The notes under the pieces were generated by a model that worked only from the letters and a program-made list of their open reading frames with translations, was not told the DNA's origin and ran no database searches. From Candidatus Rokuibacteriota bacterium (lineage in GTDB: Bacteria > Methylomirabilota > Methylomirabilia > Rokubacteriales > CSP1-6): a DNA stretch of 17,685 nucleotides. The stretch lies in NCBI GenBank assembly GCA_016184305.1, contig JACPCX010000038.1, positions 1 to 17,685 on the forward strand. Direction: 5' to 3'. Both the position numbers and the translations under genes were made by a program. Of this stretch, positions 1-17,011 are shown one piece after another (the first letter of the stretch is position 1; each line of letters begins with the position of its first letter).

Positions 1-741
1 GTGGCACATCACGCCGCAGTACCCGCCGCGCACCAAAGTGTCGTCGATCTTGGTCGGCGCCTTTCCTGCGAGCCGCGTCGCTTCGTCGAGCCAGACATTG
101 GCCAGCTTGAGCAGATCCGCCGAGTAGAAGACGTTGTGGATGCCCTTGGCGAAGGTCACGAACCGCATGTTGAAGGCCGCGTCGTCCACGAGCTTGGCGG
201 CGCGGGCGTGCTTCGCGCTCTTCTGGTCGGCGGCCGCCAGCGCGGCCTGCGCATCCGAGAGCTTGGGCACGAGGATGTCGCGCATCCTGGCGAGGGTTCG
301 CGTCCACTGGTCGAGCATCCCCCGGTACTTCTCCCCGTGGCAGGTGATGCAAGCCTGCTCGCTCGGCCTGAAGGTTTGGCCGACGATCTTCGCGAGCCCG
401 GCCGTCTCCTTCGGCGCCACGTGGCACGCGATGCACTCCACGCGCACCTGGAACATGTGGCTGGGGATCATCGGGGTGCCCCGCCCGCCGAGCCCCAGGT
501 ACATCCGCACGACGCCCTGGTGCTCGTCCTCGTGACAGCCCCGGCAGTCGAGCTCGCCCTGCCGATGCGGCGGCGCCGGGGCCTCTTCGGGCTTGCCGCC
601 GGCGGGTGGCAGCCGGTGAAGCTGCCCGGGCATCACCCCGCCCGGCGCTGGCGCCGTCTGGCCCTGCGCCTCCCACACCCCGGACACTCCCCCCGCGCTC
701 AAGCCGAGCATGGCCGCGACCAGAACCGCCGCGGGCCTCAT
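1..741 (-). CDS. Periplasmic multiheme c-type cytochrome (3' end truncated by window edge; absent from ORF track)
   Basis: Manual translation from ATG 741 (ATGA overlap with upstream stop): MRPAAVLVAAMLGLSAGG signal-like N-terminus, CRGCH, CIACH, CITCH, a helical region with KGIHN, then CGVMCH at the edge. Frame is open to base 1. Confidence 0.88.
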   Translation of the reverse strand, partial: MRPAAVLVAAMLGLSAGGVSGVWEAQGQTAPAPGGVMPGQLHRLPPAGGKPEEAPAPPHRQGELDCRGCHEDEHQGVVRMYLGLGGRGTPMIPSHMFQVRVECIACHVAPKETAGLAKIVGQTFRPSEQACITCHGEKYRGMLDQWTRTLARMRDILVPKLSDAQAALAAADQKSAKHARAAKLVDDAAFNMRFVTFAKGIHNVFYSADLLKLANVWLDEATRLAGKAPTKIDDTLVRGGYCGVMCH

Positions 742-1667
742 GGCTTCACCAGTGCGGCGAGCCGCGCGACGTCGCCACTCCGCGCGGCCGACGGCACGCC
801 GATGCGCGGCGGCAGCTTGTGCTTGATCTCGGTGTGGCAGCGCTCGCACTCGATGTTGCGCTTGGCCACGTGGAAGTCGTGGATCATCGGGGTGTCGGGG
901 TAGCGGTCGAGCTTCTCCGGTTGGTTGTGGCAGGTGTAGCAGCGCGAGCGGGGCGCCTCCCCGTCCCCCTCGACGACGTTCAAATGGCAGCTCTGGCAGG
1001 CGATGCCGCGCCTCGTGACCTCCTCGTGGTTGAAGGTGATGGAGCCGACCCGGATGTCCCCCTTCGGGGCCTGGTGGCAGCCTGTGCAGCCGGCGATGGG
1101 CTGGAACGTCCGGGCGGTCTTCAGCCCCTTGAAGTGGCAGAGGAAGCAGGAGGAGTCCGTCACCTCGATGTGGCTGCCCACCACGATCTGCGAGTGGCAG
1201 GAGGTGCACCGGAGCTGCCGGCCCCGGCGCTCTTCCTCGAGGTGCGGCTTGTGATCGAAGATGATCCCGCGCTTGTAGACCACCTTGCCGTCCAGCAGCC
1301 GCCGGTCATGGCAGCCCGAGCGGAGGCAGGCGGCGTCCTCGATCTCGGCGTAGGGCTTCGACGAGTACGTCTGCGTGGCCCACTTCACCACCTGGGCCAT
1401 CGCCTGGTACTTGACCCAGAGGGTCTCGCGGAAGCCGGGCGGGTAATGGCACAGCACGCAGGTGACGTCCTTGTGCTTGGAGGTCTTCCAGGCGTCGACA
1501 TACGGCTTCATGATGTGGCAGCTATTGCAGAGGAGCGGGCTGGTGCTGAAATGCCAGAGCCCGGCCCCGCCGGCCCCGCCGGCCACCACCACGATCCCGG
1601 CGATGATGAGGATGGCAATGAGGCGGCGCCGGCGCCTCCCAGGCGCGGGCTCGGGCATGGACGTCAC
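738..1667 (-). CDS. Membrane-anchored multiheme cytochrome c with NapC/NirT-like N-terminus (8 CXXCH + 1 CX4CH)
   Basis: RRRRR followed by a TM helix; CNSCH, CVLCH, CLRSGCH, CTSCH, CFLCH, CTGCH, CQSCH, CYTCH, CERCH. Start is GTG 1667 or ATG 1658. Confidence 0.9.
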   Translation of the reverse strand: MTSMPEPAPGRRRRRLIAILIIAGIVVVAGGAGGAGLWHFSTSPLLCNSCHIMKPYVDAWKTSKHKDVTCVLCHYPPGFRETLWVKYQAMAQVVKWATQTYSSKPYAEIEDAACLRSGCHDRRLLDGKVVYKRGIIFDHKPHLEEERRGRQLRCTSCHSQIVVGSHIEVTDSSCFLCHFKGLKTARTFQPIAGCTGCHQAPKGDIRVGSITFNHEEVTRRGIACQSCHLNVVEGDGEAPRSRCYTCHNQPEKLDRYPDTPMIHDFHVAKRNIECERCHTEIKHKLPPRIGVPSAARSGDVARLAALVKP

Positions 1668-1719: not shown

Positions 1720-1906
1720 CGCCTGAACGTGGAAGATCTCGGGTTGCGGTTCGGCCTCTTCGCCCTGACGGGCTCATCGGGACGCCTGAATGTGGATGAT
1801 TCCCGGTTGCGGTTTGGCCTCTTCGCCCTGACGGGCTCATCGGGACGCCTGAATGTGGATGATTCCCGGTTGCGGTTTGGCCTCTTCGCCCTGACGGGCT
1901 CATCGG
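1720..1906. repeat. Tandem repeat, about 3 copies of a 63-bp unit
   Basis: Unit cgcctgaatgtggatgattcccggttgcggtttggcctcttcgccctgacgggctcatcggga starts at 1720, 1783 and 1846. Copies 2 and 3 are identical over about 61 bp; copy 1 is diverged. Confidence 0.95.
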
Positions 1907-2721
1907 AGGAGTGCCGTCGCGATGATCAGGGAGGCGAGGACGAGGCCGATGCTCAGCGCGGTGAATCCCACCACTCGCGCGAAGTTGCGCATCCAGAGCG
2001 GCGGTGGGTCCGCCCTCCGCTCATCCAGCCGACCCTCGCGCTTCAGGCGCTCGTACTCCATCGGATGATCGTGCCGGAACTCCTCCTCTGACATCCTCCC
2101 CGTGAAGATCACCGGGTCCATCGGGAACTTCTCGGGCCGGATATGCGTGTTGAAGAAGTGGATCGTGAAGATGAAGCCCACCGCCAGGAGCGCCTCGTCG
2201 CTGTGGACGATGATCGCCACGTTGAACACCCATCCGGGCAGAAAGCGGGCGAAGAATGTCGGGTACCACAGGAGGAGCCCGCTGCTCCCGATGATCGCGA
2301 TGCCCCAGAACACTGCCCAGTAGTCGAACTTCTCCCAGTAGGCCCAGCGGTCGAAGCGCGGCCGCGGCCCCAGCCCCACGAAGTAGCGCATGTGCTGCAC
2401 CATCTGCGCGAGATCCCGCGGCTGCGGCACCATGGAGGTCGGGCCCCAGAAGATGCCGGGCTGCCGTGTGAGGATCAGGCGGGCCACGTAGCCGAGGTGC
2501 AAGGCGAAGTAGAGGAAGGTGATGACGGCGAAGAAGCGGTGGAGGTAGCCGGTGGTGAACGGCCCCCCGAGGGCGTGGGACAGCCCCTGGCCCCAGCCGG
2601 TCTGCGCGTACTTGAGCGGCAGGCCGGTGAGGGCGAGCCCGAGGAAGCTCACCATGACCATCCCATGCAGGATGCGGTGGTAGAGGTTGAGCCTGAAGTA
2701 GTGACGCTCGGGGGCGGTCAT
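1900..2721 (-). CDS. b-type cytochrome membrane subunit (FdnI/HydC-like; resembles the CbcL C-terminal domain)
   Basis: True start ATG 2721 (MTAPERHYFRLNLYHRILH), overlapping the upstream TGA. Several TM helices, His ligand candidates (HRILH, YLHR, ALH, IVHSDEA, TIHFFNTH) and WEKFDYWAVFWG motif. Confidence 0.9.
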   Translation of the reverse strand: MTAPERHYFRLNLYHRILHGMVMVSFLGLALTGLPLKYAQTGWGQGLSHALGGPFTTGYLHRFFAVITFLYFALHLGYVARLILTRQPGIFWGPTSMVPQPRDLAQMVQHMRYFVGLGPRPRFDRWAYWEKFDYWAVFWGIAIIGSSGLLLWYPTFFARFLPGWVFNVAIIVHSDEALLAVGFIFTIHFFNTHIRPEKFPMDPVIFTGRMSEEEFRHDHPMEYERLKREGRLDERRADPPPLWMRNFARVVGFTALSIGLVLASLIIATALLR

Positions 2722-4181
2722 GGCTCGGGGGTCCTCTCGGCCGGCCCGCGGCCGCGCCGGAATCGCTCGGCCAGGGACCGCGGCAGCCAGAGCGCCGTGT
2801 GCAGCCCGAAGAAGGCGAAGGTGCCCAGCAGGAGGCTCATCATGACGAAGTTCGTGTAGTAGAGGAACGGGAACCGGGCCTTGCTGTGCGGGTCGGCGTG
2901 CGGGTGGAACTGGGCGAAGGCCGCCGTGGCCGCCGGATGGCATTGCTGGCACGTGGACACGATGCTCGCCTGCGACACCTTCGAGCGCGGGTCGGAGGGC
3001 GGCTGGATGGTGTGCGATCCGTGGCAGTCCGAGCACTTGGCGACCCGGGTGAGCCCGAGCTGCGTTACCTTGCCGTGGAAGGTATCCCGGTAGGTCCTGA
3101 GCGACTCCTTGTGACAGGTGCCGCATTCCCGGATGACGTCGAGCTGCCACGGGGCCCCCTCGACCCGCCGGATCTGGTGAGCGCTGTGACAGTCGGTGCA
3201 GACCGGCGCCCCGCTGTCCCCCCTGGCGGCCGCCTTGCCGTGGATGGACTCCGCGTATTCCTTCTCCACTCCCGCGTGGCACGTCGCGCACGTCTTCGGG
3301 ATATTGGTGCGGTAGACGCGTGAGCCGGCGTCGGTGCGCGCCCGGATCTCGTGGGTCCCGTGGCAGTCCGAGCAGTTGGCCGCGACCAGCAACCCGCTCC
3401 GCGTCACGGCCCGGCCGTGGATCGAGTCCATGTATTGCTGATAGACGGCCCCGACCTGGATCCCGTGGCGCTTGGCCAGCTCGGGATCGGCGTGGCACTG
3501 GGCGCAGGTCCGCGGCAGGTTCAGGTGGTACACGGGCGACTCCGGGTCCGACCTGGCAACCACCGTGTGGGTCGCGCCGTGGCACGAATTGCACGTGGCC
3601 GCCTCGAGGTCCCCCCGCTGGCGCGATCGGCCGTGAACGCTCTCCCGGTAGAGGCTCACCTGCTTCTGGTGGCAGGCCGCGCAGGTCTGGGTGGACAGCG
3701 AGCCCGCCGGCTTGACATCGTGGGTCCCGTGGCAGGCCGCGCAGGTTGGCGGACGGCTCCCCGTCTCCGCCCTTCGGCTCCCGTGGATGCCCCCTCCCAG
3801 CACCGCGCGCTGCTTGTCGTGGCACCCGGCGCAGGACACGGCGGGCAGCCGCTCGTCGTGGGGCGCGGTCGCCGTCTTGTGGCAGGCCACGCACTCGAGC
3901 CGCGAGTGGGCAGACCCCTTCAGGAGCGCCTCGTCCACGAACAGCGACGGCGGCTTGCCCTTCGCGGGCGCACCACGGGTGAGGCCCTTGTCGGCGTGGC
4001 AACCCAGGCAGTCCTCGGCCTTCGGTTGTGCCTGCTCTGCCTTCGCCGCTGCCGGGGCTGCGGGGGCCCCGGCAGCGCTCGCGACGATGAGGAGCGCGCC
4101 GAAACTCAGGACGGCGCCCGAAAGGAGTTCCGCGCTACTTCTTCGTATGGCACTTCTCGCAGTTGGCCTTGTCTTCCACAT
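2718..4181 (-). CDS. 13-heme cytochrome c with C-terminal TM anchor (resembles the CbcL periplasmic domain)
   Basis: 13 CXXCH motifs counted, signal-like N-terminus, C-terminal HPHADP...FLYYTNFVMMSLLLGTFAFFGLHTALW. Start is uncertain: the only in-frame ATG/GTG/TTG before the signal is ATG 4181, inside the upstream gene. Confidence 0.88.
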   Translation of the reverse strand: MWKTRPTARSAIRRSSAELLSGAVLSFGALLIVASAAGAPAAPAAAKAEQAQPKAEDCLGCHADKGLTRGAPAKGKPPSLFVDEALLKGSAHSRLECVACHKTATAPHDERLPAVSCAGCHDKQRAVLGGGIHGSRRAETGSRPPTCAACHGTHDVKPAGSLSTQTCAACHQKQVSLYRESVHGRSRQRGDLEAATCNSCHGATHTVVARSDPESPVYHLNLPRTCAQCHADPELAKRHGIQVGAVYQQYMDSIHGRAVTRSGLLVAANCSDCHGTHEIRARTDAGSRVYRTNIPKTCATCHAGVEKEYAESIHGKAAARGDSGAPVCTDCHSAHQIRRVEGAPWQLDVIRECGTCHKESLRTYRDTFHGKVTQLGLTRVAKCSDCHGSHTIQPPSDPRSKVSQASIVSTCQQCHPAATAAFAQFHPHADPHSKARFPFLYYTNFVMMSLLLGTFAFFGLHTALWLPRSLAERFRRGRGPAERTPEP

Positions 4182-4506
4182 TGAAGACGACCGCGCTGCC
4201 CACCTTCGTCTTGCCGTTGTGGCAGGCGCCGCATTGCTCCCCGGCCTTCATCTTGTCCATGGTCGCCGTGCCCGTCTGCCCCTTCTTCATCTTGAAGATC
4301 TTGGTGTGGCAGCCCGTGCACTTCTCGACCTTCTCCTTGTGCTTCTCGTGGCTGAACGTCACCTTCCCGGGGCTGTCCTTGCCCTGGTCGAAGCCGAAGT
4401 CGGCCGGTACCTTGGGCTGCGCGAGGCCGGGTCCAGCGCCGAGTGATACCAAGGCGAAACCGGCGACGACCACGACAGCCACGATCCGTGTGAGCCGCAT
4501 GTCCAT
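4135..4506 (-). CDS. Triheme c7-type periplasmic cytochrome (GSU1996-domain-like)
   Basis: Signal peptide; VTFSHEKH, CTGCH, TMDKMKAGEQCGACHNG, CEKCH; RBS AAAGGAGG before the ATG. Confidence 0.9.
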   Translation of the reverse strand: MDMRLTRIVAVVVVAGFALVSLGAGPGLAQPKVPADFGFDQGKDSPGKVTFSHEKHKEKVEKCTGCHTKIFKMKKGQTGTATMDKMKAGEQCGACHNGKTKVGSAVVFNVEDKANCEKCHTKK

Positions 4507-4533
4507 GCCTCCTTTGCTCCCCGTTTTCCGGGG

Positions 4534-4653
4534 TTACCGCGGTGTACTCCTCAGAAATGAGATGAGGTTGCCCAGCTCCTCGCCCGCGAAGCGCGGAAAG
4601 AGCAACCCGTGCTCGGCCGCCTTGGCGGCCATGCGGGGCGAGTGGGTCCACAT
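4534..4653 (-). pseudogene. C-terminal remnant of a WNH-repeat class I cytochrome c gene
   Basis: MWTHSPRMAAKAAEHGLLFPRFAGEELGNLISFLRSTPR* aligns by eye with MWNHLPKMTDRMQQLGIPRPKLDSREAGDLIGFLY in 7485-8681, but has no CXXCH or signal peptide. Confidence 0.75.
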
Positions 4654-4656
4654 CTC

Positions 4657-5754
4657 TCATTTGGTCGCGCTCGCCGTGTACCCGAGGTAGGTCAGCACGA
4701 TCATGTAGAGGATGACAGCGACGCCGATCCATGTGAAGAGCCGGCTGGCTTCGCCCCTCGCCGTCCGCCGATCGAGAAACGGGATGAGCGCGAGGAACAG
4801 CCCGCCGACCCCGAAGCCCACGATGCCCACGATCTCGCCCTCGATGCCGAGGACGTAGGCCGGCAGGTACTTGAGGGTCTGGAACATGAACATGAAGTAC
4901 CACTCCGGCTTGATCCCGGCCGGCGCCGGCAGGAACGGGTCCGCCTTCTTGCCAAGCTCTGCCGGAAGGTACGCGGCCAGCGCCGCCAGGATCGCCAGCA
5001 CCGAGAGCCACCCCACCAGGTCTCTCAGGAGGAAATTGGGGAGGAATGGCATCGTGCGCCGGGACCCGCCCCGCTCCGCGACGCCGGGAGGCACGCTCAT
5101 GCCGTGTCGCTGGACGAGAAAGAGGTGGAGCCCCAGGAACAGGGTCGTGAGCGCGGGGAGCACCGCCACGTGGATCCCGTAGAAGCGGGTGAGCGTGGCC
5201 CCGGTCACCTCGTCCCCGCCCCGGAGGAGGCGGCCGAGGAATCCTCCGATCACCGGCATGGCCCCCGTGATCTCGGTCCCCACCTTCGTGGCGAAGTACG
5301 CCAGCTCGTTCCACGGCAGGAGATAGCCGGTGAAGCCGAAGCCCATCGCGAGGCCCATCAGCCCCATCCCCGAGAACCAGGTGATCTCCCGCGGGGGCGC
5401 GTAGGCCTTGAGGAGCAGGACGCTGAAGAGGTGGACGAACAGCGTGAAGATCATGAGGTTGGCCGCCCAGGCATGGATGGAGCGGATGAGCCAGCCAAAC
5501 TCCACCTCGGCCATCAGGAACTGAATCGACTCGAATGCCTCCTCGGCACTGGGCCTGTAGTAGAAGAGGAGGAGGATGCCCGTCGACACCTGGATCATGA
5601 ACAGGAAGAGCGTCATCCCCCCGAGGTAGTACCAGGCCGTGTGGCGGTGGACGGGGATCTCCTTCTTCCTGGCGAGCTTCTCCAGCTCCGCAAGACCGAC
5701 GCGCCTGTCGAGCCACGTCCAGAGCCGGCCGTGCCGCTTCTCGACCGTGGCCAT
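4657..5754 (-). CDS. petB: Cytochrome b of a Rieske/cytochrome b (bc-type) complex, b6+subunit IV fused form
   Basis: Start ATG 5754 (MATVEKRHG); [16 protein letters not shown]...[19 protein letters not shown]...LH and IKPEWYF Qo motif. Confidence 0.93.
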
Positions 5755-5756
5755 GC

Positions 5757-6212
5757 TCAGGCGCCCTTGCTCACCACGATCTGGTTCCCGCGGGCGTTGG
5801 CGACGTAGGCGTCGAGCGGCCGCGGCGGCGGTCCCTCGATGTTCTTGCCGTTGAGATCGTAGTGGCCGTTGTGGCAGGCGCACCAGATGTGGCTGATGTC
5901 GGACCGGTACTGGACGGTGCAGCTGAGATGCGTGCACACGGCCGAGAAGGCCTTGAGCTCCCCCTGGGCTGTCCGCACGAGAATGCCCGGGCGGCTGCCG
6001 AACTTGAAGATCTGCCCGGTGTTCGGCTTCACGTCGTCGGGCTTGATCGCCAGCGTCACCGTTCCCGCGGTGGACTCCCCGACTTCGGGCGGGATCAGAT
6101 AGCGGCCCACCGGGTAGAGCACGGAAAGCAGGAACGCCCCCGCGCTCGTGCCCAGAAACCAGTTGATGAACCGCCTGCGGGTTGCCTCCTGGTCCACCGC
6201 CTCGTCAGCCAT
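5757..6212 (-). CDS. Rieske 2Fe-2S protein of bc-type complex
   Basis: Tat-like TRRRFINWF plus TM helix; CTHLSC and CACHNGHY boxes; GPPPRPL; RBS GGAGG. Confidence 0.93.
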
Positions 6213-7476
6213 CGCGTCCCTCCTGCCTCCGGTCCACTTGGCGCATCTTGAGCACGAGCCCCACGATGAGCGCCAGTATGATCACCACGGACACCACCAG
6301 CCACTTGCGACGGAAGGCCAGCTCCTGCAGGGCGCGCACGCCGCGCGCGAAGGCCTTGCCGCTCACCGCGAGCCCGGGCTCGACCTCCTTCGCCACCGCG
6401 TCCACCGAGAAGGCGTGGACGGCGGTGCGCGCCTTGACCAGGGCTTCGCCGGCGGCGTTCAGGTCGAACGTCGCCTGGCTGACCTCCATGCCGGCATGCT
6501 CAGCCTTGAGCAGGATCGCCTGCGCCTTGTCGTGCTCGGTTCGCAGGGCGTCGATCCGCGCCCTCATCTCGGTGGCCGCCTTGCCGCCCTTGTCGGCGTC
6601 GGCGTGGCACCCGGCGCATACCGCCTTGTCGCCGAGCCCGAGCATCTCGTCGCTGGTCGGCTTGATCGCATGGTTCTCGTGGCAGGTCGCGCAGCCGGGG
6701 TTGCCCATCTCCACGAAGACCTTGTCGTGGACGCTCTTCTTGAAGAGGTCCGCCATGACCGTGTGGCACTGGCCGCAGACGTTCCCGACCCAGGAGATGC
6801 CCGGCGGCACGGCCCCGTGATTGCCGTGACAGTCGTTGCAGGTGGGCGCCGAGAGGTCGCCCTTCACCGTCATGGCCTGCGAGTGGACGCTGCTCTTGTA
6901 CTTCTGCAGCTGGTCGGTCGGGATCTTGTAGCCGGCCATGTACTTGGCATCGGCGTGACAGCGCCCGCACGTGTCGGCCACCCTGAGCGGGTGGACGCTC
7001 GACTTCGGGTCGGACGGCGGCCGGATCGAATGGGCGGGATGGCAGCTCACGCACGTGGCCACCTTCGAATCGCCCAGCTCCTTGAGCCGGCGGCCGTGGA
7101 CAGACGAGGCGTACTCGGTCACCTGATCGACCCGCAGCGAGGGGTTGTACCGCTTCATGAACCCGGCGTCCGAGTGGCACCGGCCGCAGACTTGCGGGAT
7201 CTGCTGGCGCTTGGGCTTGCCGATATACCCCTTGGCGGGGTCCATCGCCTCCAGCCCGCTCTCCCGCGCGTCGCCGCCGTGGCACGCGATGCAGCCCAGC
7301 CCCTTCGCCGCGTGGATGTCTCCGGGAAACTCCCTCGCCGGCCCGGCCAGGCGCTCGTCACCTGTCTCGAGGTGACAGGCCGCGCAACGGTCGGTAGGCG
7401 GCGAGGCTCCCTCCGCAGGCCAAGGCGCCAGCATCAGGAGAAGTACGAGGGCATAGCCCAGTCCCGTGAGTCTCAT
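6205..7476 (-). CDS. Nonaheme cytochrome c with helical domain and C-terminal TM anchor
   Basis: True start ATG 7476 (MRLTGLGYALVLLLMLA signal; RBS GAGG); 9 CXXCH; C-terminal WLVVSVVIILALIVGLVL. Confidence 0.9.
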   Translation of the reverse strand: MRLTGLGYALVLLLMLAPWPAEGASPPTDRCAACHLETGDERLAGPAREFPGDIHAAKGLGCIACHGGDARESGLEAMDPAKGYIGKPKRQQIPQVCGRCHSDAGFMKRYNPSLRVDQVTEYASSVHGRRLKELGDSKVATCVSCHPAHSIRPPSDPKSSVHPLRVADTCGRCHADAKYMAGYKIPTDQLQKYKSSVHSQAMTVKGDLSAPTCNDCHGNHGAVPPGISWVGNVCGQCHTVMADLFKKSVHDKVFVEMGNPGCATCHENHAIKPTSDEMLGLGDKAVCAGCHADADKGGKAATEMRARIDALRTEHDKAQAILLKAEHAGMEVSQATFDLNAAGEALVKARTAVHAFSVDAVAKEVEPGLAVSGKAFARGVRALQELAFRRKWLVVSVVIILALIVGLVLKMRQVDRRQEGRDG

Positions 7477-7484
7477 GGCATCCT

Positions 7485-8681
7485 CTACGGGATCTGCCGC
7501 GCGCGCCCGAGCGCCTGAAGCAGGGCCCCGATGTCGGCCATCTCTTGCGGCCGGAACTCGGGCCATGGGCGCTTCTTTCCACCTGGCGCAGCCGCCGTCA
7601 CCGTCGCGTGGTTCCACAGGCTCGCGACCACTCCCGCGGGAGAGTCGAGCCCCCTGGCGCGCGTCAGATCGCTCGCCGGCTTGCCCCGCTCCCCGTAAAC
7701 GCCGTGGCAGAAGAGGCACCCCTTGTCCACAGCCAGCGCCCATCCGCGGCTGACGCTGCCCGGCTCCGCGAAGTACTTCACCGAGTAGAGGTAGGCCACC
7801 AGATCGGCCATCTCCTCGGGGCGGAGCTGGGGGACGGGCACGCCCCGCGCTTGCATGGCCTGCGCCATGGCCGGAACCTTGTTCCAGATAGCCGCGGCAA
7901 ACTCCAGCGGGCTCCGCCTCACACCGAGCTCCACCAGGTCCGGGCCCACGCGCCCGCCCGCGCCGCCGGCCGCGTGGCACTCGATGCAGCGCTTCTCGGA
8001 GAAGAGCTGCCGCCCCACGTCGGCACGGCCGGGGAGCACGTAGAGCGGGCCTTCGCGCGGCCCGGCAGAGGCGGGCACAAGGAAGGCCAGGAGGTCGCGC
8101 AGCTCGGCGCCGGTGAAGGTCGGCCGCTCCACTCCCTTGGCCTTCATGGTCTCCGCCATCTGGGGCCCGTGGTTCCACAGGGCCGACGCCACGAACATCG
8201 GGGAGGCGAACTGCTTCGTGAAGTCCAGGTTCGGCCCCACGACGCCGCCGATCCCCCCGACCGTGTGGCAGAGGATGCACTTCTTGTCCGAGAAGAGCTT
8301 CCTGCCGGTCTCGACGCTGCCCGGCGGGTCGAAGTAGTTCAGTGTGTACAGGAACCCGATCAGATCTCCTGCCTCCCGGCTATCCAGTTTCGGGCGGGGG
8401 ATGCCCAGCTGTTGCATCCGGTCCGTCATCTTCGGCAGGTGGTTCCACATGGCCGTCGCGAGATCGTAAAAGGACCGGGGTCGCTGGATACGCCCGAGAT
8501 CGGGGCCGATCTTTCCTCCCACCCCATTGACCGAATGGCACTTGACGCATCCCTTGCCGCCGAACACCCGTGATCCGGCCAGGGGATCCTGGCTCGGGCT
8601 GAAGACGGGCTGCGCCCAGGCCGCACCGAGAGGCACGAGCAGGAACGCGGCGACGACGGTCCACTTCACGCTGCTCCGCAT
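7485..8681 (-). CDS. Cytochrome c with four tandem class I monoheme domains (WNH repeat type)
   Basis: True start ATG 8681 (MRSSVKWTVVAAFLLVPLGAAWA signal); CVKCH, CILCH, CIECH, CLFCH, each followed by a GPDL-like and a WN(H/K) motif. Confidence 0.9.
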   Translation of the reverse strand: MRSSVKWTVVAAFLLVPLGAAWAQPVFSPSQDPLAGSRVFGGKGCVKCHSVNGVGGKIGPDLGRIQRPRSFYDLATAMWNHLPKMTDRMQQLGIPRPKLDSREAGDLIGFLYTLNYFDPPGSVETGRKLFSDKKCILCHTVGGIGGVVGPNLDFTKQFASPMFVASALWNHGPQMAETMKAKGVERPTFTGAELRDLLAFLVPASAGPREGPLYVLPGRADVGRQLFSEKRCIECHAAGGAGGRVGPDLVELGVRRSPLEFAAAIWNKVPAMAQAMQARGVPVPQLRPEEMADLVAYLYSVKYFAEPGSVSRGWALAVDKGCLFCHGVYGERGKPASDLTRARGLDSPAGVVASLWNHATVTAAAPGGKKRPWPEFRPQEMADIGALLQALGRARQIP

Positions 8682-8708
8682 GGGCAACCCCTTCCGCCGG
8701 GTGACCGG

Positions 8709-8739
8709 CAGCCGCCGGGAAGAGGCCTCCCGGCGGCTG
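8709..8739. terminator. GC-rich intergenic hairpin (weak terminator or mRNA-stabilising stem)
   Basis: cagccgccggga-N7-tcccggcggctg, a 12-bp perfect stem; no U-tract. Confidence 0.4.
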
Positions 8740-8761
8740 GCTGCGACTGCTTCGACCGCTG

Positions 8762-8941
8762 CTACTCGAACTTCAGCTTGAGCACCCCCGGCGTGTAGGC
8801 GTGACGCACCTGCGTGTTGTCGAACACGGACACGCCGCAGGAGTATTCTTTCTTCAGATCGTTGAACTGTACATCGAACTGGCTGCCGGTTGAAAGCTTC
8901 CTCCAGAACACCGTCGTCCACACCCCGTCCTTCCAGGCCAT
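8762..8941 (-). pseudogene. C-terminal fragment of an ethylbenzene dehydrogenase gamma-like (EB_dh/DOMON heme-b) protein
   Basis: MAWKDGVWTTVFWRKLSTGSQFDVQFNDLKKEYSCGVSVFDNTQVRHAYTPGVLKLKFE* (59 aa). The WxDGxW..RKLxT..DVQF..FDN..H pattern was recognised from memory of the family; the N-terminal part is missing. Confidence 0.7.
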
Positions 8942-8951
8942 CTTGGCCAGA

Positions 8952-10892
8952 TCACATCCCGTGACGCATGCCCATCGGCTGGTTCAGCAGCACGATGCCC
9001 GCCACGGTGAATGCGAAGGAGAGCACGGCCATGGGCACAAGGGCGCGGCTGGCGGCTCGCGGATCGCCGTACACGCGGAGCGCCGTCCGCTGGCCCGCCA
9101 CCAGTGACAGCACGAAGAAGCCCGCGAGGATGCCCATCTGCAGGAGCCCGATCACCGCTTCCGAGGCCAGCGGCGCCTGCTTCCAGTCGGGGACGCCCAG
9201 CCACAGCGGGGTGTACAGCCCCACCGCCCGCTGCACCGCAGGCACGATGCCCCCGCCCTCGAGGAGCAGGTGGGCGAGGTTGTGGGCCAGGTGCAGGGCG
9301 AGTCCCACCGGGATGAACATGTAGCCGAAGGTGACGAAGGTGCGACGGGGCCCGAGCCCCTGCTGGCCTGCCAGCCGATCGGACAGCCGGGCGCCCCCGT
9401 ACACGACGGCGGGAATCGCCACCAGCGCCCCGACCAGGAGAATGCCCGTCTCGATCATTCCGAGATAGGTGACGGGCTTCAACGCGCCGCGCGCCCAGCC
9501 CGGCAGCCAGCGGGCCAACTGGGAGATCAGGCCCGGCCAGGCCGAGAGCATCTGCGCCGTCACCACCAGGGTGATGCCCACGAGGGCCACGGCCAGGTAC
9601 GACTCGTCGAGGAACCGCCGCCCCGACGCCCAGAGATCCTTGCCGAAGGCCCGGAAGCGCAGGGCCAGGTTGTCCCGCGAGCAGGCGTTGAGGCATTCGC
9701 CGCAGAGCGTGCAGTAGTTGTTGCGGTCGAGCGCCTGCGGAAACTCCAGCATCGGACAGCCGCGGCCGCCGGCGCCGCCCTGGTAGCACTCCTTGTCGCG
9801 GTGGGACCGGCACTGCAGCGCGTCCTTCGCTCGGAGCTCGACCGGCGCGGTCATGGAGTAGATCCCGATGAGCCCGCCAATCGGACAGAGGTACCGGCAA
9901 AAGCTCCGGCGCTCGAAGAAGAGGCCCACCGCCACCGCGAACACGGCGAAGAAGACGACGATCCACGCCGTCACCAGCGGCGAGCGCACCACGCCGAGCT
10001 GCTCGTCCGCCCAGGTGAGCAGGACGAACATCCCCGTGGCCCACCAGATATTGCGGAAGGGCTTCGGCAGCCGGCGGGCCGCCCTCGCCAGCCCCGAGGT
10101 CCACTCGTTGAGCGCGCCGAAGGGGCAACCCAGGCACCAGACGCGCCCGAGGAGCACGAAGGTGAAGATGATGCCGGCCCACCAGATCGTCCACGTGAGC
10201 TTGGTGGCGAGGTTGACGCCACCCTCCTGGACGTCGAAGAAGCCCAGGAAGACGATCACGCCCATGAGCAGGAGCAGCGGGACTTGCAGCGCCGGCTGGA
10301 ACAGGCGGGAGGTCAGGGTCCCGCGAAGCCACGGTGAGGCCAGGAGATCGACGGGCTCTCGCGAGGGCACACCGAGCCGCGCCCGCATCCCGACCAGGTA
10401 GAGCCCTGCCAGCGCGCCCCCTCCCAGCAGCGCCACCAGTGTCCACGCGGCCGCGCCCATGCCCGCCGCCCCCGAGACGGTGATAGGCAGATCCACCACC
10501 AGCCCAGGCTCGAAGCGTTGCCCCTCGAGGGAGGCGAGCACCACGCGCACGCGATGCTCGCCCATCCTGGAAGGGGTGACGGTGACGACGTAGCTGCCTG
10601 CCCACGTCACCTCGAGGGCCGGCCGCGGGTCCGGCGCTGCGCCATCGGCGCTGAGCCCGATCAGCACGGTCCCGCCGGAAACGGGATCGCCGGAGCCGCC
10701 GCGCCCGACCCTGGCCACCACCTGCCCCGGCTCTCCGAGCCGCAGCGGACCCGTCCCGCTCAGCAGCTCGATCTCGTACCCGGCCACCGTGGCGGTGGCC
10801 CCCAGCGGGACCGCCGAGCCATGCTCGCCATGGGCCGCGGCGAGGGCCGGCAGGAGCGTGACCAGCGCGGTCACCAGCACTCGGAGCATCAT
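8952..10892 (-). CDS. 4Fe-4S binding polytopic membrane protein (NapH/CcoG/RdxA-like) with N-terminal YtkA/FixH-like periplasmic domain
   Basis: True start ATG 10892/10889 (MMLRVLVTALV signal, AHGEHG); GRVWCLGCPFG, RSFCRYLCPIGG, GCPM...CTLCGECLNAC; many TM helices. Confidence 0.87.
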   Translation of the reverse strand: MMLRVLVTALVTLLPALAAAHGEHGSAVPLGATATVAGYEIELLSGTGPLRLGEPGQVVARVGRGGSGDPVSGGTVLIGLSADGAAPDPRPALEVTWAGSYVVTVTPSRMGEHRVRVVLASLEGQRFEPGLVVDLPITVSGAAGMGAAAWTLVALLGGGALAGLYLVGMRARLGVPSREPVDLLASPWLRGTLTSRLFQPALQVPLLLLMGVIVFLGFFDVQEGGVNLATKLTWTIWWAGIIFTFVLLGRVWCLGCPFGALNEWTSGLARAARRLPKPFRNIWWATGMFVLLTWADEQLGVVRSPLVTAWIVVFFAVFAVAVGLFFERRSFCRYLCPIGGLIGIYSMTAPVELRAKDALQCRSHRDKECYQGGAGGRGCPMLEFPQALDRNNYCTLCGECLNACSRDNLALRFRAFGKDLWASGRRFLDESYLAVALVGITLVVTAQMLSAWPGLISQLARWLPGWARGALKPVTYLGMIETGILLVGALVAIPAVVYGGARLSDRLAGQQGLGPRRTFVTFGYMFIPVGLALHLAHNLAHLLLEGGGIVPAVQRAVGLYTPLWLGVPDWKQAPLASEAVIGLLQMGILAGFFVLSLVAGQRTALRVYGDPRAASRALVPMAVLSFAFTVAGIVLLNQPMGMRHGM

Positions 10893-11368
10893 CGCCCGTA
10901 CTTGCGATCGATCTCGGCGCGGATGCGCGCCACGGAGTACCCCGCCTTCGCCAGTCGAGACGCGTCCAGCGCCTCGTCCATGCAGATGTCTCAGGTGGCG
11001 GCGTGGCCGTCGGTGTAGCACGACAGCAGGCTCTTGTGCCCCATGTGCTTGTCGCACTCGCAGTAGCAGTACAGCTGGTCGAGAATGCCGGGGATCTCGC
11101 GAGCGACCTGGTGCGCGACCCGCGCCTTGCCGACGAAGCGCGCCGGGTCCAGCGTCGGCCGCGTCTCCCGCCGCGCCACCCGCGCGACCGGAGCAGCCGC
11201 CGTCAGCGTCGGGGCCGGGCCGGTCGCCGTCGATTCACCCGTGCTCGCGCGCCACGCCACGGCTCCCGCCGCGCCGGCCAGCGCCACGGCGCCGATGATG
11301 ATCCAGAGCAGCGGACGCCGCGCTCCGCCTCGACGCCCTTCTGACCCAGAACGTTGGGTCCCAGCCAT
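10889..11368 (-). CDS. CYCxC/PCYCGC-family protein with probable selenocysteine (TGA 10991-10993, UDIC motif), 159 aa
   Basis: TM anchor, LYCYCECDKHMGHKSLLSCYTDGHAAT-TGA-DICMDEALDASRLAKAGYSVARIRAEIDRKYGR*. The family-like C-terminus continues in frame after the TGA, and the final TGA overlaps the next gene's ATG. RBS GGGAGG. Confidence 0.85.
10956..10976 (-). promoter_or_regulatory. Candidate bacterial SECIS element
   Basis: CGAGGCGC-UGGAC-GCGUCUCG: 8-bp stem (one G-U), 5-nt loop with G in position 2; 22 nt separate the UGA from the loop. Confidence 0.7.
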
Positions 11369-11412
11369 CGTGTCCTCCCACGCGGCTCATCCGGCCGCTC
11401 GCTGTGACTCCA

Positions 11413-11428
11413 CGCAACGTCTGTGCCA
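11413..11428 (-). promoter_or_regulatory. Sigma54 (-24/-12) promoter for the cytochrome operon
   Basis: Minus strand TGGCAC-AGACG-TTGCG matches TGGCAC-N5-TTGC, about 45 bp upstream of ATG 11368; a sigma54 activator is encoded divergently. Confidence 0.85.
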
Positions 11429-11590
11429 TTTCCAGGCGCTCGCTAACCATCTGGCACATAAGGCCTCAGTGGGCGAGCCCCGGCCGCCCGGCGCGGCGGC
11501 GGAGCCCCCCCTGGGGCGATGCCGCCCCAGGGGCGCAGCGGACTGGCCCCGAGGAGCCCATGGCGATGGGCCGAGACCCGCAGCGGTCTC

Positions 11591-11776
11591 ATGTCCTTAA
11601 CGAATGCTGCCAAGGAGTACCTCCCCGGCTTCACGGTGGAGACGGTACTGCCGTTCGCCGGCAGACGCATGCTCGCCTACCAGGCGGAGCTGAAAGGCCC
11701 CAAGGGAGAGGCGCGGACGCTCCACGTCAACCCGTGGGGGAACGTGATGCCCTTCCCGGGCCCCATGGGCCGCTGA
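11591..11776 (+). pseudogene. Possible remnant or small gene (PepSY-like C-terminal segment)
   Basis: MSLTNAAKEYLPGFTVETVLPFAGRRMLAYQAELKGPKGEARTLHVNPWGNVMPFPGPMGR* looks protein-like with GC3-biased codons, but has no clear N-terminus or signal. Confidence 0.4.
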
Positions 11777-11889
11777 AGGTTCGTCGAAGGCGGGGCGCCC
11801 GACGAGACCGCAGGGTAGCGCGGTCGACGCGGGCGCCCCCCGAGACGACCACTGATCCGCGAGTGATAGAATCCCGCGTTGAGGCCCTC

Positions 11890-13650
11890 ATGAAGCTCTC
11901 CTGGCTCCCCCGCTACTTCCTGGCTTCCCTCGCGCTCCTTCTGGTCCTCGTGGCGCTGCACACCGCCTGGGCCGCCCGCCGCACCCAGCGCGAGCTCCTC
12001 GCGCAGATGGAGGAGAAGGGCCTCGCGCTCGGCGAGGCGCTGGAGGCCTCGAGCCGCGCCGCGATCCGCGGCAACGCCCTGATGGAGGAGATGATCGCCC
12101 AGCGGCTCCTCGATAACGCGCGGCTCATCGATCAGCTCCTCTTCTCCCCGCGCTTTGACGCGGGGGACCTTCCGCGCATCGCGGCCATGAACCGCCTCCG
12201 GCGCGTGGACCTGCTCGACCCGCAGGGCGCCCCGTACCCCCTGGCCGCCCTGCGCCCGCCCATGGGCCGGCCGGGGGACATGGGCGCGATGATGCGCGGG
12301 ATGATGCCTCACCCGCCTGGCGCGGGAGGCCCCGCGGGGGAGCATCCGCCAATGCCCATGTACATGTGGGGACGCCGCTGGGGTGCCGGGGATGAGGACG
12401 CCCGCTCCGCCCCACCCGCCATCCAGGATCGCAAGTTCTGGGAGGGCAGCCTCTTCGGCGTGGCCGTCGGAGCCCGGGCCTTTTCCGGCATCATCGCCGT
12501 CCACGCCGACGCCGACTTCGTGCTGAACTTCAGAAAGGAGATCGGCGTCGACGCGCAGCTCCAGGAGCTGGCGCGCCGCTCCGGGATCGAGTCGGTGGCG
12601 CTCCTGGATCGGACCCTCACCGTGGTGGCGCACTCCGACCCGGCGCGGGTGGGCCGGCGCGAGGAGGACGCGGCGATCCGCGCCGCGCTCGACGGCGCCC
12701 GGACCTCGAGGCGCCTCGTCCGCGACGAGCATGGGGCGCAAGTCCTCGAGGTGCTCCACCCGGTGCTGGCGGCGGGAACACCCTCGGGGCTCCTGCGACT
12801 CCTGCTCTCCACGGAGCCCATGGAGCGCGCGTGGCTGCGCGACCGGAACGCGGGAATCCTCCTCGGCGCGGCTGTCCTGGCGCTCGGCACGATGGGTCTC
12901 GCGCTCATCTTCTACACACAGCACCGTCATCTGAAGGAAGTCCGGGCGCTCGAGGCAACCATGGACAGGCGGGAGCGGCTGGCGACGCTCGGCGACATGG
13001 CGGCGACGGTGGCACATGAGGTGAGGAACCCGCTGAACGCGATCTCCATGGGCCTCCAGCGGCTCGGCGCCGAGTTCCGGCACCCGGAGGACCAGGAATA
13101 CCCTCGCCTCGTCGGCCTCATGCAAGGCGAGGTGACGCGGCTCAACGGGATCGTGGAGGAGTTCCTCTCCCTCGCCCGTCCGCTCTCGCTCTCCGTGTCG
13201 CCCACCGAACCGGGCGATCTGCTTCGCAACGTGGCCGGGCTCGTGGAGGGTGAGGCAGCGCGCGCCAGCGTTCGGCTGGTCGTGAGCGTGCCGGATGGCG
13301 TTCCGGCACTCCAGGCGGATCGCGAGCGGCTCACCCAGGTCCTGCTCAACGTGGCGCTCAACGCCATCCAGGCCATGCCCGACGGCGGCACGCTCACCTT
13401 CCATGCTGCGGCCTCAGGGGGCACAGCCACCGTCACCGTCAGCGACACCGGCGCCGGCATCCCCGCCGACATCCTGCCGCGCATCTTCGAGCCCTACGTG
13501 ACGACCCGGGCGCGGGGGCTCGGCCTGGGGCTCGCCATCGCGCGGAGGATCGTGGAGGCGCATCGCGGCCGCATCGAGGCTGAGAGCGAGCCCGGCCGCG
13601 GAAGCCGTTTCATCATCAGGCTCCCGCTCGGCGGACCGGTCCGTGGCTGA
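11890..13650 (+). CDS. Sensor histidine kinase (ZraS/HydH/NtrB-like) with Met-rich periplasmic insert
   Basis: True start ATG 11890 (MKLSWLPRYF); two TM helices; H-box AHEVRNPL, N-box QVLLNVALNAIQAM, DTGAGI, GLGLGLAI. Confidence 0.93.
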   Translation: MKLSWLPRYFLASLALLLVLVALHTAWAARRTQRELLAQMEEKGLALGEALEASSRAAIRGNALMEEMIAQRLLDNARLIDQLLFSPRFDAGDLPRIAAMNRLRRVDLLDPQGAPYPLAALRPPMGRPGDMGAMMRGMMPHPPGAGGPAGEHPPMPMYMWGRRWGAGDEDARSAPPAIQDRKFWEGSLFGVAVGARAFSGIIAVHADADFVLNFRKEIGVDAQLQELARRSGIESVALLDRTLTVVAHSDPARVGRREEDAAIRAALDGARTSRRLVRDEHGAQVLEVLHPVLAAGTPSGLLRLLLSTEPMERAWLRDRNAGILLGAAVLALGTMGLALIFYTQHRHLKEVRALEATMDRRERLATLGDMAATVAHEVRNPLNAISMGLQRLGAEFRHPEDQEYPRLVGLMQGEVTRLNGIVEEFLSLARPLSLSVSPTEPGDLLRNVAGLVEGEAARASVRLVVSVPDGVPALQADRERLTQVLLNVALNAIQAMPDGGTLTFHAAASGGTATVTVSDTGAGIPADILPRIFEPYVTTRARGLGLGLAIARRIVEAHRGRIEAESEPGRGSRFIIRLPLGGPVRG

Positions 13651-15004
13651 GCCCTTCCGCATCCTCGTGGTGGACGACGAGCCCGCGCAGCGCGAGCTGG
13701 TCTCGGGCTTCCTCCGCAAGCGCGGTTTCGGCGTGGATGAGGCCGCCGGTGGACTGGCGGCGCTCGCGCGCTTCACCCAGGAGCCCTTCGATCTGGTCCT
13801 CACCGATCAGCGCATGCCCGATCTCTCCGGGCTCGACCTCCTCCAGCGCCTCCGGGCGGTGACGCCCGAGGCGGCGGTCATCGTCATGACGGCCTACGGG
13901 ACCATCGAGACGGCGGTGGGCGCCATCAAGGCGGGCGCCACCGATTATCTGAGCAAGCCGATCAACCTGGACGAGCTCCTCCACCGCATCGAGCGGGTGC
14001 GCGAGCGACAGCGCCTCCTCGGAGAGAATCTCGAGCTGCGCGCGGCGCTCGAGGAGCGGCACCGCGTCGAGGGGATCATCGGCGACAGCGGCCGGATGCA
14101 GGAGGTCCTCTCCCTGGTGAGACGGGTGGCTCCCAGCGACGCCACCGTCCTCATCCGCGGGGAGAGCGGCACCGGCAAGGAGCTCATCGCCCGCGCCATC
14201 CACCACGCGAGCCCGCGGGCCGGAGGTCCCCTGGTGGCCGTCAACTGCGCGGCGCTGCCCGAGGGCCTGCTCGAATCGGAGCTGTTCGGCCACGAGAAGG
14301 GCGCCTTCACGGGCGCCGCGGCCTCCCGCAAGGGGCGCTTCGAGCTGGCCGACGGCGGCAGCATCTTCCTCGACGAGATCGGCGACCTGCCGCTCCACCT
14401 CCAGGTGAAGCTGCTGCGCGTGCTCCAGGAGCGGCAGTTCGAGCGCGTGGGCGGCACCAGGACCATCCCCGTCAATGTCCGCGTGCTGGCCGCCACTCAC
14501 CGGAACCTGGAAGCCCTCGTGCGCGAGGGGCGCTTCCGCGACGACCTCTACTACCGCATCAACGTGGTGACGCTCCTCCTGCCGCCGCTCCGGGAGCGGC
14601 GCGAGGATCTGCCGCCGCTCATCGAACATTTCCTGACGCGCTTCGCCGGGAAGAACGGCAAGACGATCCGCGGTCTCACCCGCGAGGCGCGCGACGCCCT
14701 CCTCCGCTACGACTACCCCGGGAACGTGCGGGAGCTGGAGAATCTGATCGAGCGCGCCGTGGTGCTGACGCGCGACGAGGTAATCGGCAAGAGCGACCTG
14801 CCACTTTCCCTCGACGAGCAGGGGCCGGAGGGAGAGGCTCCCGCCGGGCTCGTGGCGGCCGTGGAGGGCCTCGAGCGCCGGATGATCCGCGACGCGCTGT
14901 CCCGCGCCGGCGGCGTCCAGACGCGCGCCGCCGAGCTCCTCGGCATCAGCGAGCGCGTGCTGCGCTACAAGCTCAGCAAGTACGGGCTGGCCGGCGATCG
15001 CTGA
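13643..15004 (+). CDS. Sigma54-dependent response regulator (ZraR/NtrC family)
   Basis: Receiver ILVVDDE..DQRMP, Walker A GESGTGKE, GAFTGA, FLDEIG, C-terminal HTH (RAAELLGISERVLRYKL). Confidence 0.96.
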   Translation: MAEPFRILVVDDEPAQRELVSGFLRKRGFGVDEAAGGLAALARFTQEPFDLVLTDQRMPDLSGLDLLQRLRAVTPEAAVIVMTAYGTIETAVGAIKAGATDYLSKPINLDELLHRIERVRERQRLLGENLELRAALEERHRVEGIIGDSGRMQEVLSLVRRVAPSDATVLIRGESGTGKELIARAIHHASPRAGGPLVAVNCAALPEGLLESELFGHEKGAFTGAAASRKGRFELADGGSIFLDEIGDLPLHLQVKLLRVLQERQFERVGGTRTIPVNVRVLAATHRNLEALVREGRFRDDLYYRINVVTLLLPPLRERREDLPPLIEHFLTRFAGKNGKTIRGLTREARDALLRYDYPGNVRELENLIERAVVLTRDEVIGKSDLPLSLDEQGPEGEAPAGLVAAVEGLERRMIRDALSRAGGVQTRAAELLGISERVLRYKLSKYGLAGDR

Positions 15005-15011
15005 CTCGGGA

Positions 15012-15039
15012 CCACGCTCGCCCGTGACACGGGGCGTGG
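15012..15039. terminator. Hairpin between convergent genes, possible bidirectional terminator
   Basis: ccacgc..cccgt-gac-acggg-gcgtgg imperfect stem; no U-tract. Confidence 0.3.
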
Positions 15040-15042
15040 GAA

Positions 15043-16488: not shown

Positions 16489-16499
16489 CGCCCCCCCCG

Positions 16500-16549
16500 G
16501 GGGTCAGGTCTTGCAATCCAGCATTTGCGATAATGCAAGACCTGACCCC
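16500..16549. repeat. REP-like palindrome
   Basis: ggggtcaggtcttgca-N18-tgcaagacctgacccc, a perfect 16-bp inverted repeat with an AT-richer spacer. Confidence 0.85.
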
Positions 16550-16556
16550 ATCCGGC

Positions 16557-16985: not shown

Positions 16986-17011
16986 GCCGGGCGCCGCTCG
17001 TGCTGCCGCGG

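Follow-up and report, generated by a model that had tools for sequence, protein, structure and literature searches.

Results

An in-frame TGA gene and its partner in the window

We analysed 17,685 nucleotides of Candidatus Rokuibacteriota bacterium (Methylomirabilota; GenBank assembly GCA_016184305.1, contig JACPCX010000038.1, positions 1 to 17,685), a stretch that is called the window throughout and has a G+C content of 69%. Read on the minus strand, it carries a short gene whose in-frame TGA almost certainly encodes selenocysteine (Sec), and directly behind it a second gene, here named g2, for a polyferredoxin. The two genes and the elements that belong to them are:

11373..11379, minus strand: Shine-Dalgarno-like GGGAGGA, 4 nt 5' of the ATG at 11368..11366, read directly from the sequence
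10889..11368, minus strand: gene of a CYCXC-family selenoprotein, 159 residues plus the final TGA (160 codons), from translation, hidden Markov model (HMM) scores and aligned homologues
11240..11320, minus strand: predicted N-terminal membrane anchor (residues 17-43), a helix in the AlphaFold2 model preceded by four arginines, with a putative topology
10991..10993, minus strand: selenocysteine codon UGA, residue 126 of U-D-I-C, with the TGA conserved among related loci
10956..10976, minus strand: hairpin resembling a selenocysteine insertion sequence (SECIS), with an 8-bp stem and the 5-nt loop UGGAC, from fold and codon conservation
8952..10892, minus strand: partner gene g2, 646 amino acids, from translation, a Fer4_5 match and orthologues after the selenoprotein gene

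Translation meets the TGA at 10993..10991 after 125 codons, in the context GHAAT-TGA-DIC, and gene callers terminate the product at residue 125 in the window as well as in most database entries. Reading through this codon adds 33 codons (DICMDEALDASRLAKAGYSVARIRAEIDRKYGR, DICMDEA...IRAEIDRKYGR) up to the TGA at 10891..10889, which overlaps the ATG of g2 (10892..10890) as ATGA; the g2 product begins with MMLRV. A first-pass annotation, made from the letters of this DNA alone, had described the TGA inside GHAAT-TGA-DIC, the 33 further codons and the ATGA overlap, and every one of these details is present in the sequence. Taken alone, the 33-codon open frame is unremarkable at the G+C content of the window. 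The open frame behind the TGA, the hairpin and the promoter motif described below are each without excess over chance when considered singly, and it is the comparison with relatives that lifts all three above chance.

Family membership and conservation of the UGA codon

The read-through protein passes the cut-off of the NCBIfam equivalog model NF041379, “CYCXC family (seleno)protein”, with 132.2 bits (cut-off 90, E 5.3e-39), and the match runs from residue 69 to 157 of the protein and from position 1 to 89 of the 90 positions of the model; at the genome level the same model gave 128.7 bits with one TGA inside the match. Pfam PF13798 (PCYCGC) is matched with 36.1 bits against a gathering threshold of 25, as it is by all 57 members that we aligned. 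A protein search returned 688 relatives at E <= 0.001, the best 120 of which fall into size classes of about 110-125 and about 153 residues. In the alignment, the short relatives end precisely with GHAAT, and at the position of the TGA in the window the long relatives have a Cys. C101, Y102, C103, C105, H111, C117, H122, C/U126 and C129 are invariant in the 57 sequences, and beyond the TGA this is also true, besides C129, of E132, A133 and D154.

For the codon itself we compared 50 related loci taken from one-genome-per-species contigs (numbered with L below). Codon 126 reads TGA in 44 of them and TGC or TGT in four (L047, L048, L052, L057), and it is not readable in two, one cut (L066) and one a fragment (L068). 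The spacing U-x-x-x-C instead of U-x-x-C occurs in 11 loci labelled Deltaproteobacteria, Syntrophobacteraceae or Binatia (L050, L051, L053-L056, L060, L062-L065); these have the same hairpin, shifted by one codon. Among 21 related genomes, which include the genome of the window (G000) and the unpublished G012, eight have a match over the NF041379 cut-off, and all eight have exactly one TGA inside it. The assignment to a CYCXC/PCYCGC selenoprotein with a UxxC pair, made in the first-pass annotation, is therefore borne out by the NF041379 and PF13798 scores (132 and 36 bits), by the homologous Cys that aligns with the TGA and by the TGA found in 44 of the 50 loci.

Besides, the related genomes G005, G008, G009, G010, G012 and G015 contain a further group of CYCXC-like genes that are more distant and score 48-67 bits, below the family cut-off; 7 of these 8 genes have one in-frame TGA. 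This group may form a separate Sec-containing subfamily.

The family itself has been catalogued. Two reviews list it among the prokaryotic selenoproteins as “hypothetical protein OS_HP4” or as “CYCXC family protein, PF13798, UxxC” in the parts consulted, and both credit it to Zhang and Gladyshev 2007 (PMC9312934, PMC13188914). The main text of that study (PMC1976440) names OS_HP1-3 and not OS_HP4, and its supplements may hold the original description. The statement in the first-pass annotation that Sec forms of this family had been noted before was thus right, as the two reviews and the name “(seleno)protein” of the NCBI model testify. In addition, a section of one of the reviews describes a Methylomirabilota genome with 63 predicted selenoprotein genes and reports this phylum as selenoprotein-rich (PMC13188914). 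Our finding is therefore the correct annotation fix for an already catalogued selenoprotein family and not a new family, and a selenoprotein specialist will find nothing surprising in it. The fix matters at the level of the protein, as the annotation truncated at residue 125 loses the UxxC pair and two helices.

The hairpin and the Sec machinery

In bacteria, the SECIS element is a hairpin just 3' of the UGA with a G in its apical loop, and a distance rule of 16-37 nt applies. An 8-bp hairpin with a G-containing loop had been noted at this distance in the window and is present: in CGAGGCGC / UGGAC / GCGUCUCG the stem starts 14 nt and the loop 22 nt after the UGA, and the loop holds GG. We found the hairpin in all 43 aligned Sec sequences, with 94.2% of the cells pairing and the loop reading UGGAY. 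Moreover, the stem does not vary at synonymous sites. Its codons (E A L. A S) are GAG, GCG, CTG, GCG and TCT, a single codon each, throughout the 31 UxxC-type sequences, while the other conserved four- to six-fold degenerate positions of these sequences use 2 to 5 codons and the loop codon alternates between GAC and GAT. The Ser codon TCT of the stem is unusual for genomes of ~70% G+C, and the two other conserved serines use AGC/AGT and TCC/TCG. In the small sample of four Cys-form loci, the stem changes in two (GAA in L052; GAA and GCG-GCG in L057). An Rfam scan of positions 10800-11450 gave four matches at chance level and no SECIS family.

Several results weigh against Sec decoding at this codon. 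The 72-nt stretch does not fold unusually well for DNA of this composition: z is 0.53, and 140 of 200 shuffles reach the same or a better fold energy. A covariation test on the 43 Sec sequences found no pair that had changed on both sides, and shuffles do as well, so that the hairpin is supported by conservation beyond the needs of the protein and not by covariation. As to the machinery, selA has no match in this assembly, and neither selB nor tRNA-Sec has one over its cut-off, the best tRNA-Sec match reaching 44 bits versus 47. In agreement, Aragorn found 25 tRNA genes in the whole assembly and no tRNA-Sec.

Of the genes selA, selB, selC and selD, which had been named as a check on the Sec prediction, only selD is thus found. 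It scores 345.7 bits (contig C18, locus L009), and the active-site residue, the U of ...AGUASK..., is encoded by an in-frame TGA, so that selD is itself a selenoprotein gene. The assembly is 88.8% complete and measures 3.2 Mb, versus 4.7-5.4 Mb for three genus mates, in all three of which selA adjoins selB. Within the 21 related genomes, selA exceeds its cut-off in 17 and selB in 15. The simplest reading of the absent selA, selB and tRNA-Sec is an assembly gap.

These absences, together with the gene callers that end the protein at residue 125, are what speaks for a true stop at the TGA, that is, for a truncated gene, a nonsense mutation or a sequencing error in front of a frame that is open by chance. 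Yet the same TGA recurs across several phyla with a conserved protein behind it, the remaining homologues have Cys at codon 126, and the genome holds a selD with Sec. Furthermore, positions 10991-10993 are spanned by contigs from four public runs, which belong to three studies, and among the matches listed no other letter occurs there, a result that shows presence only. We consider the chance of a true stop negligible, and Sec coding and membership in the CYCXC family to be as close to certain as comparative data allow.

A predicted periplasmic helical domain and its likeness to CcmH

The AlphaFold2 model of the selenoprotein (57 sequences) shows an all-helical domain at residues 70-160 with a predicted local distance difference test (pLDDT) score > 90, a helix at residues 17-43 and a disordered linker. 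Four arginines precede this helix, so that the N-terminus would lie inside and the domain in the periplasm. The predicted helix, the preceding arginines and the PCYCGC proteins of Firmicutes, which are lipoproteins according to the excerpts consulted, together suggest a single-pass, membrane-anchored and extracytoplasmic protein. The first-pass annotation had placed the protein in the same way, and on the evidence of this helix, these arginines and the Firmicute relatives its placement stands as a prediction. The helical domain of ~95 residues would then face the periplasm on a Pro/Thr/Ala linker. Its eight invariant ligand-type residues (C101, C103, C105, H111, C117, H122, U126 and C129) suggest, from the alignment, metal binding together with a redox pair. 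Export by the Tat pathway was rejected, as the twin arginine before the helix varies among close homologues.

In a Foldseek search of the model against the PDB no match reached E 0.001, and E. coli CcmH heads the list with E 2.5. When the family profile was run against PDB sequences, the single match was unrelated (E 1.4) and CcmH was absent. The structural hint leads to the main alternative for the function of the protein, namely a CcmH/NrfF-like thiol (selenol)-disulfide oxidoreductase for the downstream cytochromes, in which the UxxC pair would reduce the CXXCH motifs of apocytochromes, ahead of the attachment of haem, with electrons supplied across the membrane by g2. In a profile-profile comparison (hhalign) of the 57 family sequences with 19 CcmH sequences from related genomes, the two families align with a probability of 60.9, E 8.2e-5 and a score of 33.8. 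T-U126-D-I-C129 falls on R-C-V-V-C, and the C-terminal G..[ST]...[IV][KR]A....[KR]YG is aligned as well. The controls scored lower, with 22.5 and 23.5 for reversed profiles and a mean of 12.5 (standard deviation 3.1, maximum 22.9) for 100 column shuffles. CcmH also tops the natural proteins in the structure searches, with Foldseek ranks 1 (2kw0) and 14 (2hl7), and with rank 2 of 48,161 chains for P. aeruginosa CcmH 2hl7 in VIA-align (Z 5.3, root mean square deviation 3.5 A over 69 residues). The window encodes 37 or more CXXCH motifs as well as a single CX4CH and a single CX3CH, and a DsbD_2/CcdA-type gene lies directly upstream of the homologue in L048.

These signals are weak, however: the Foldseek match has a probability of 0.30 besides its E of 2.5, and a Z of 5.3 is within the chance range for helical bundles. 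Furthermore, 0 of the 57 members match Pfam CcmH (PF03918) at E <= 10, and CcmH is missing from the PDB profile search. The genome already has two canonical CcmH genes, which also rules out the selenoprotein as a stand-in for a missing CcmH. Eight invariant Cys, His and Sec residues exceed the needs of a CXXC reductase, and in many loci the gene is adjoined by metal transporters and not by cytochromes. We therefore judge a function in cytochrome maturation to be unlikely. A distant kinship of the CYCXC domain with CcmH is possible. Unusual haem motifs were also considered as a reason for a dedicated lyase and set aside, as one CX4CH and one CX3CH among ~39 motifs are not telling.

The partner protein g2

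The product of g2 begins with a signal peptide, and the mature protein starts with HGEHG. A beta-sandwich comes next, then a polyferredoxin core of the Fer4_5 type, five further helices and, at the C-terminus, PMGMRHGM. The core is NapH-like, with two CxxxCP and two 4Fe-4S motifs, and matches Fer4_5 with E 3.9e-10 and 40 bits versus a cut-off of 22. In the orthologues, the mature N-terminus keeps the pattern AHG-[ED]-H, E42 and E94 are conserved, and so is PMGMRHGM at the C-terminus. The five-helix part contains an invariant HLAHN..HLL.EG, which puts three invariant histidines into one helix.

Pfam has no match on the N-terminal domain, which by sequence belongs to no P19 family, nor on the C-terminal 215 residues. 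By structure, the N-terminal domain can be placed. Its model has a pLDDT of 87, and all seven Foldseek matches with E <= 0.001 are CrdA or FtrA/P19 (E 8.6e-5 to 9.2e-4). The template modelling (TM) scores are 0.71 on the target for CrdA of H. pylori and 0.53-0.58 for FtrA/P19, in a comparison made at the level of the fold. In the ESM Atlas, g2 finds its own clusters of “4Fe-4S binding protein” only; one distant cluster is 20% NosL and serves as a lead only. As an observation on its architecture, g2 is a three-part fusion of a CrdA/FtrA-P19-like domain, a NapH-like core and a five-helix part, neither end having a Pfam family.

The two genes belong together in many organisms. An orthologue of g2 is detectable in most of the 50 loci, and the pair occurs in records of Methylomirabilota and Binatia and in records labelled Deltaproteobacteria. 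In 23 of 45 loci examined, g2 starts by the 1-nt-offset ATGA overlap, and in most others with room it starts within 90 nt.

The sigma-54-type promoter, the regulators and the cytochrome cluster

Upstream of the selenoprotein gene lie a promoter motif and a divergent two-component system, and behind g2 follow the genes of a cytochrome cluster:

13643..15004, plus strand: NtrC-type sigma-54 activator (receiver, AAA+, HTH_8), Sigma54_activat E 6.5e-75
11404..13650, plus strand: divergent sensor histidine kinase (HisKA and HATPase_c), open reading frame as listed, start approximate
11414..11428, minus strand: sigma-54-type promoter TGGCAC-N5-TTGC (-24 GG / -12 GC), the only match in the window, at a conserved place in relatives
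8762..8941, minus strand: remnant of an EB_dh-like haem protein gene, 59 codons with ATG; by tblastn it corresponds to the C-terminus of longer genes in 12 loci
7485..8681, minus strand: tetrahaem class-I cytochrome c with 4 CXXCH, Pfam Cytochrom_C E 3e-29
6205..7476 (start approximate), minus strand: nine-haem cytochrome c with 9 CXXCH, Pfam multihaem families
5757..6212, minus strand: Rieske iron-sulfur protein, NCBIfam b6f/bc1 Rieske models, all below their cut-offs
4657..5754, minus strand: cytochrome b (b6 / subunit IV type, fused), Pfam Cytochrome_B E 2e-51
2718..4181, minus strand: thirteen-haem cytochrome c with a C-terminal helix, from family matches and motif count
1900..2712 (start approximate), minus strand: b-type membrane cytochrome (FdnI/b561-like), weak matches to Ni_hydr_CYTB (E 2.4e-4) and TIGR01583 (34 bits)
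738..1667, minus strand: membrane-anchored octahaem cytochrome c with 8 CXXCH and one CX4CH, from motif count

A further cytochrome gene after the octahaem gene is cut by the end of the window. The promoter motif occurs once in the window versus 0.23 expected, and 43 of 200 shuffles contain at least one. It fits the GG-N10-GC consensus of sigma-54 promoters. Of the 42 loci that offer 300 nt or more of upstream DNA, 24 have the motif at the same relative place, and these 24 all belong to the UxxC/Rokubacteria type; rpoN is present in the genome (429 bits). The gene order after g2 is common to Rokubacteria-type loci. With the conserved -24/-12 motif, rpoN, a divergent activator and the downstream synteny of Rieske, cytochrome b and multihaem genes, our data support the idea, already put forward from the sequence of the window, that the selenoprotein gene heads a sigma-54 respiratory cytochrome operon.

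A divergent gene with a sigma-54 promoter that faces a sensor kinase and an NtrC-type regulator is also the layout of zraP and zraSR. By analogy, the selenoprotein could be a ZraP-like periplasmic accessory of metal-stress sensing, or a sink, that binds excess metal and modulates the divergent two-component system without direct electron transfer. Apart from the matching layout, the sensor kinase is nearest to ZraS among the NCBIfam models, with 261 bits, and L051 has a Metal_resist (PF13801) gene in the vicinity of its homologue. Nevertheless, the kinase stays below the ZraS cut-off of 479 and the regulator below the ZraR cut-off of 760, the regulator scoring higher on AtoC and NtrC. Two-component genes are found in only some loci, and the tight coupling to g2 would be left unexplained. 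Altogether, a ZraP-like role appears improbable to us, more so than one in cytochrome maturation.

The remaining features of the region are observations in their own right. The gene of the NtrC-type regulator is immediately followed, on the other strand, by genes for an RtcB RNA ligase (E 5.5e-170) and archease (15043-17453, minus strand). The regulator also reaches 345 bits on the RtcR model (cut-off 650), which makes it a candidate, and not an assured, activator of the selenoprotein promoter. The EB_dh-like gene measures ~350 amino acids in relatives and has CXXCH, and Pfam EB_dh matches the orthologue in L049. In the closest relative, L019, ~0.9 kb (8427-9319 of L019) has no counterpart in the window, where the site falls at 8762-8952 on the minus strand; the cause may be a deletion in this strain or a fault of the assembly. 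A GC-rich inverted repeat or stem-loop follows the remnant. Cytochrome b gives 207 bits on ExtP (cut-off 290) and the tetrahaem cytochrome 54 bits on ExtS (cut-off 100); these are models of a “selenite/tellurite reduction operon” of Geobacter, and both matches are sub-threshold. Finally, an 80-codon open reading frame between the b-type and octahaem genes (1664-1903, minus strand) consists of three tandem 21-residue units (MSPSGRRGQTATGNHPHSGVP) and is probably a non-coding tandem DNA repeat.

Neighbours in other loci

In other organisms, the neighbours of the pair, or of the selenoprotein gene alone, to both of which our survey extends, are as follows:

L060, L062, L063: FTR1/FtrD-like permease and FtsX permease
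L043, L047: DtxR-FeoA, FeoB and a cation diffusion facilitator (CDF) exporter
L056: HMA P-type ATPase
L052, L057: resistance-nodulation-division (RND) pump and extracytoplasmic function (ECF) sigma pair
L051: Metal_resist (PF13801) gene near the homologue
L048: DsbD_2/CcdA-type gene directly upstream of the homologue
L022, L028, L032: NrfC/NrfD-type genes
L055, L064: citrate synthase, rhodanese and MtrC-like cytochromes

In L051, L055 and L056, the selenoprotein gene has rhodanese genes nearby.

Discussion

A candidate function in metal handling

Besides the corrected reading frame, our data also give leads to the function of the family: the constant pairing with a polyferredoxin that has a copper/iron-protein fold, the recurrent metal-transport neighbours and the weak likeness to CcmH all hint at periplasmic redox handling of copper or iron with the help of selenium. 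We favour the view, with about equal measures of trust and doubt, that the selenoprotein works in the periplasm as the Sec/Cys/His partner of a polyferredoxin that spans the membrane and handles metal, and that it takes part in the reduction or hand-over of copper or iron. The data support the Sec codon, the assignment to the CYCXC family, the pairing of the two genes across loci, the conserved promoter motif and the CrdA/FtrA-P19-like fold at the N-terminus of g2; to these the view adds a topology, metal binding, electron flow and physical contact of both proteins that would go with it. In such a system, the hairpin 14 nt downstream would help the ribosome to read UGA-126 as Sec, and the selenoprotein, as the first unit of the sigma-54-controlled Rieske/cytochrome b and multihaem cluster together with g2, would work as a periplasmic metal/redox module. 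The polyferredoxin would move electrons across the membrane, and the Sec/Cys/His protein would bind, reduce or hand over a copper or iron ion; alternatively, it would hold the periplasmic site of g2 in the right redox state. The “metal or redox chaperone” of the first-pass annotation is in line with this. It is still the best reading and is now backed by the CrdA/P19-like domain of g2, which makes a chaperone of this kind plausible as a proposal about function.

A number of observations speak on the other side. There is no copper enzyme or iron transporter in the window, and the metal theme derives from the fold of g2 and from the loci of other organisms, not from the window genes. Several loci lack an adjacent g2, for example L022, L028, L032, L049, L058 and L061. 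By score, g2 is below the cut-offs of NapH/MauN TIGR02163 (41.7 versus 213 bits) and of NosR, so that “CcoG/FtrD-like” denotes an architectural analogy and not membership. In the window, the remnant gene and the stem-loop separate g2 from the cytochrome genes, and with these two elements between the second and the third gene we infer, rather than observe, one transcript for the whole cluster. As to published work, our literature search found no experiment, metal assay or redox assay on any family member. Full-text searches for CYCXC and PCYCGC likewise brought up nothing on function except for a note on Parageobacillus, in which, as far as the retrieved text goes, a PCYCGC lipoprotein adjoins an Fe3+ binding protein.

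Going one step further, the selenoprotein and the P19/CrdA-polyferredoxin could form a two-protein periplasmic metal redox module of the Ftr/CcoG kind, with Sec acting in copper or iron reduction or hand-over. In Methylomirabilota, this module might be under sigma-54 control and couple metal supply or metal redox state to the building or running of a Rieske/cytochrome b and multihaem chain, and the CYCXC domain might be a distant, ligand-enriched relative of CcmH. We offer this combined model as tentative, with clearly less confidence than the metal-handling partnership itself, and have found no description of such a selenoprotein-polyferredoxin metal module in the literature searched.

Comparison with known systems

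In comparison with the NF041379/PF13798 family, the window protein has everything that is expected, that is, CYCxC, H-x3-U/C-x2-C and the C-terminal IR..ID.KY helix, and nothing in the protein itself is different. Sec replaces the first Cys of a CxxC, giving UxxC, just as the tables of the two reviews list for OS_HP4. What goes beyond these table entries is the context, with a sigma-54 promoter, a coupled polyferredoxin and a cytochrome cluster, as well as the U-x-x-x-C variant in 11 loci.

With CcmH (PF03918; 2hl7, 2kw0), the protein would share the format of a small membrane-tethered periplasmic helical domain with a CxxC-type pair. The UxxC aligns with the CxxC of CcmH, the last two helices align as well, and CcmH is the best natural structural match. 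In contrast, no HMM match connects the two, the anchor of CcmH is C-terminal whereas that of the window protein is N-terminal, and the latter has an extra CYCxC-H-H-C-H loop and with it six more invariant ligand residues.

For g2, the closest parallel is found in the FtrABCD/P19-Ftr1 systems and CcoG. FtrD is the polyferredoxin of Ftr iron uptake and CcoG, a polyferredoxin of the same type, is a cupric reductase; the portions consulted mention no selenoprotein partner for either. The N-terminal domain of g2 resembles FtrA/P19 and CrdA in fold, its Fer4_5 polyferredoxin core has CxxxCP motifs and two 4Fe-4S motifs, and in three loci an FTR1/FtrD-like permease follows g2. Different from the Ftr systems, the window contains neither a cupredoxin (FtrB) nor a permease, and in g2 the P19-like domain and the polyferredoxin are united in one polypeptide, which carries the five-helix part in addition.

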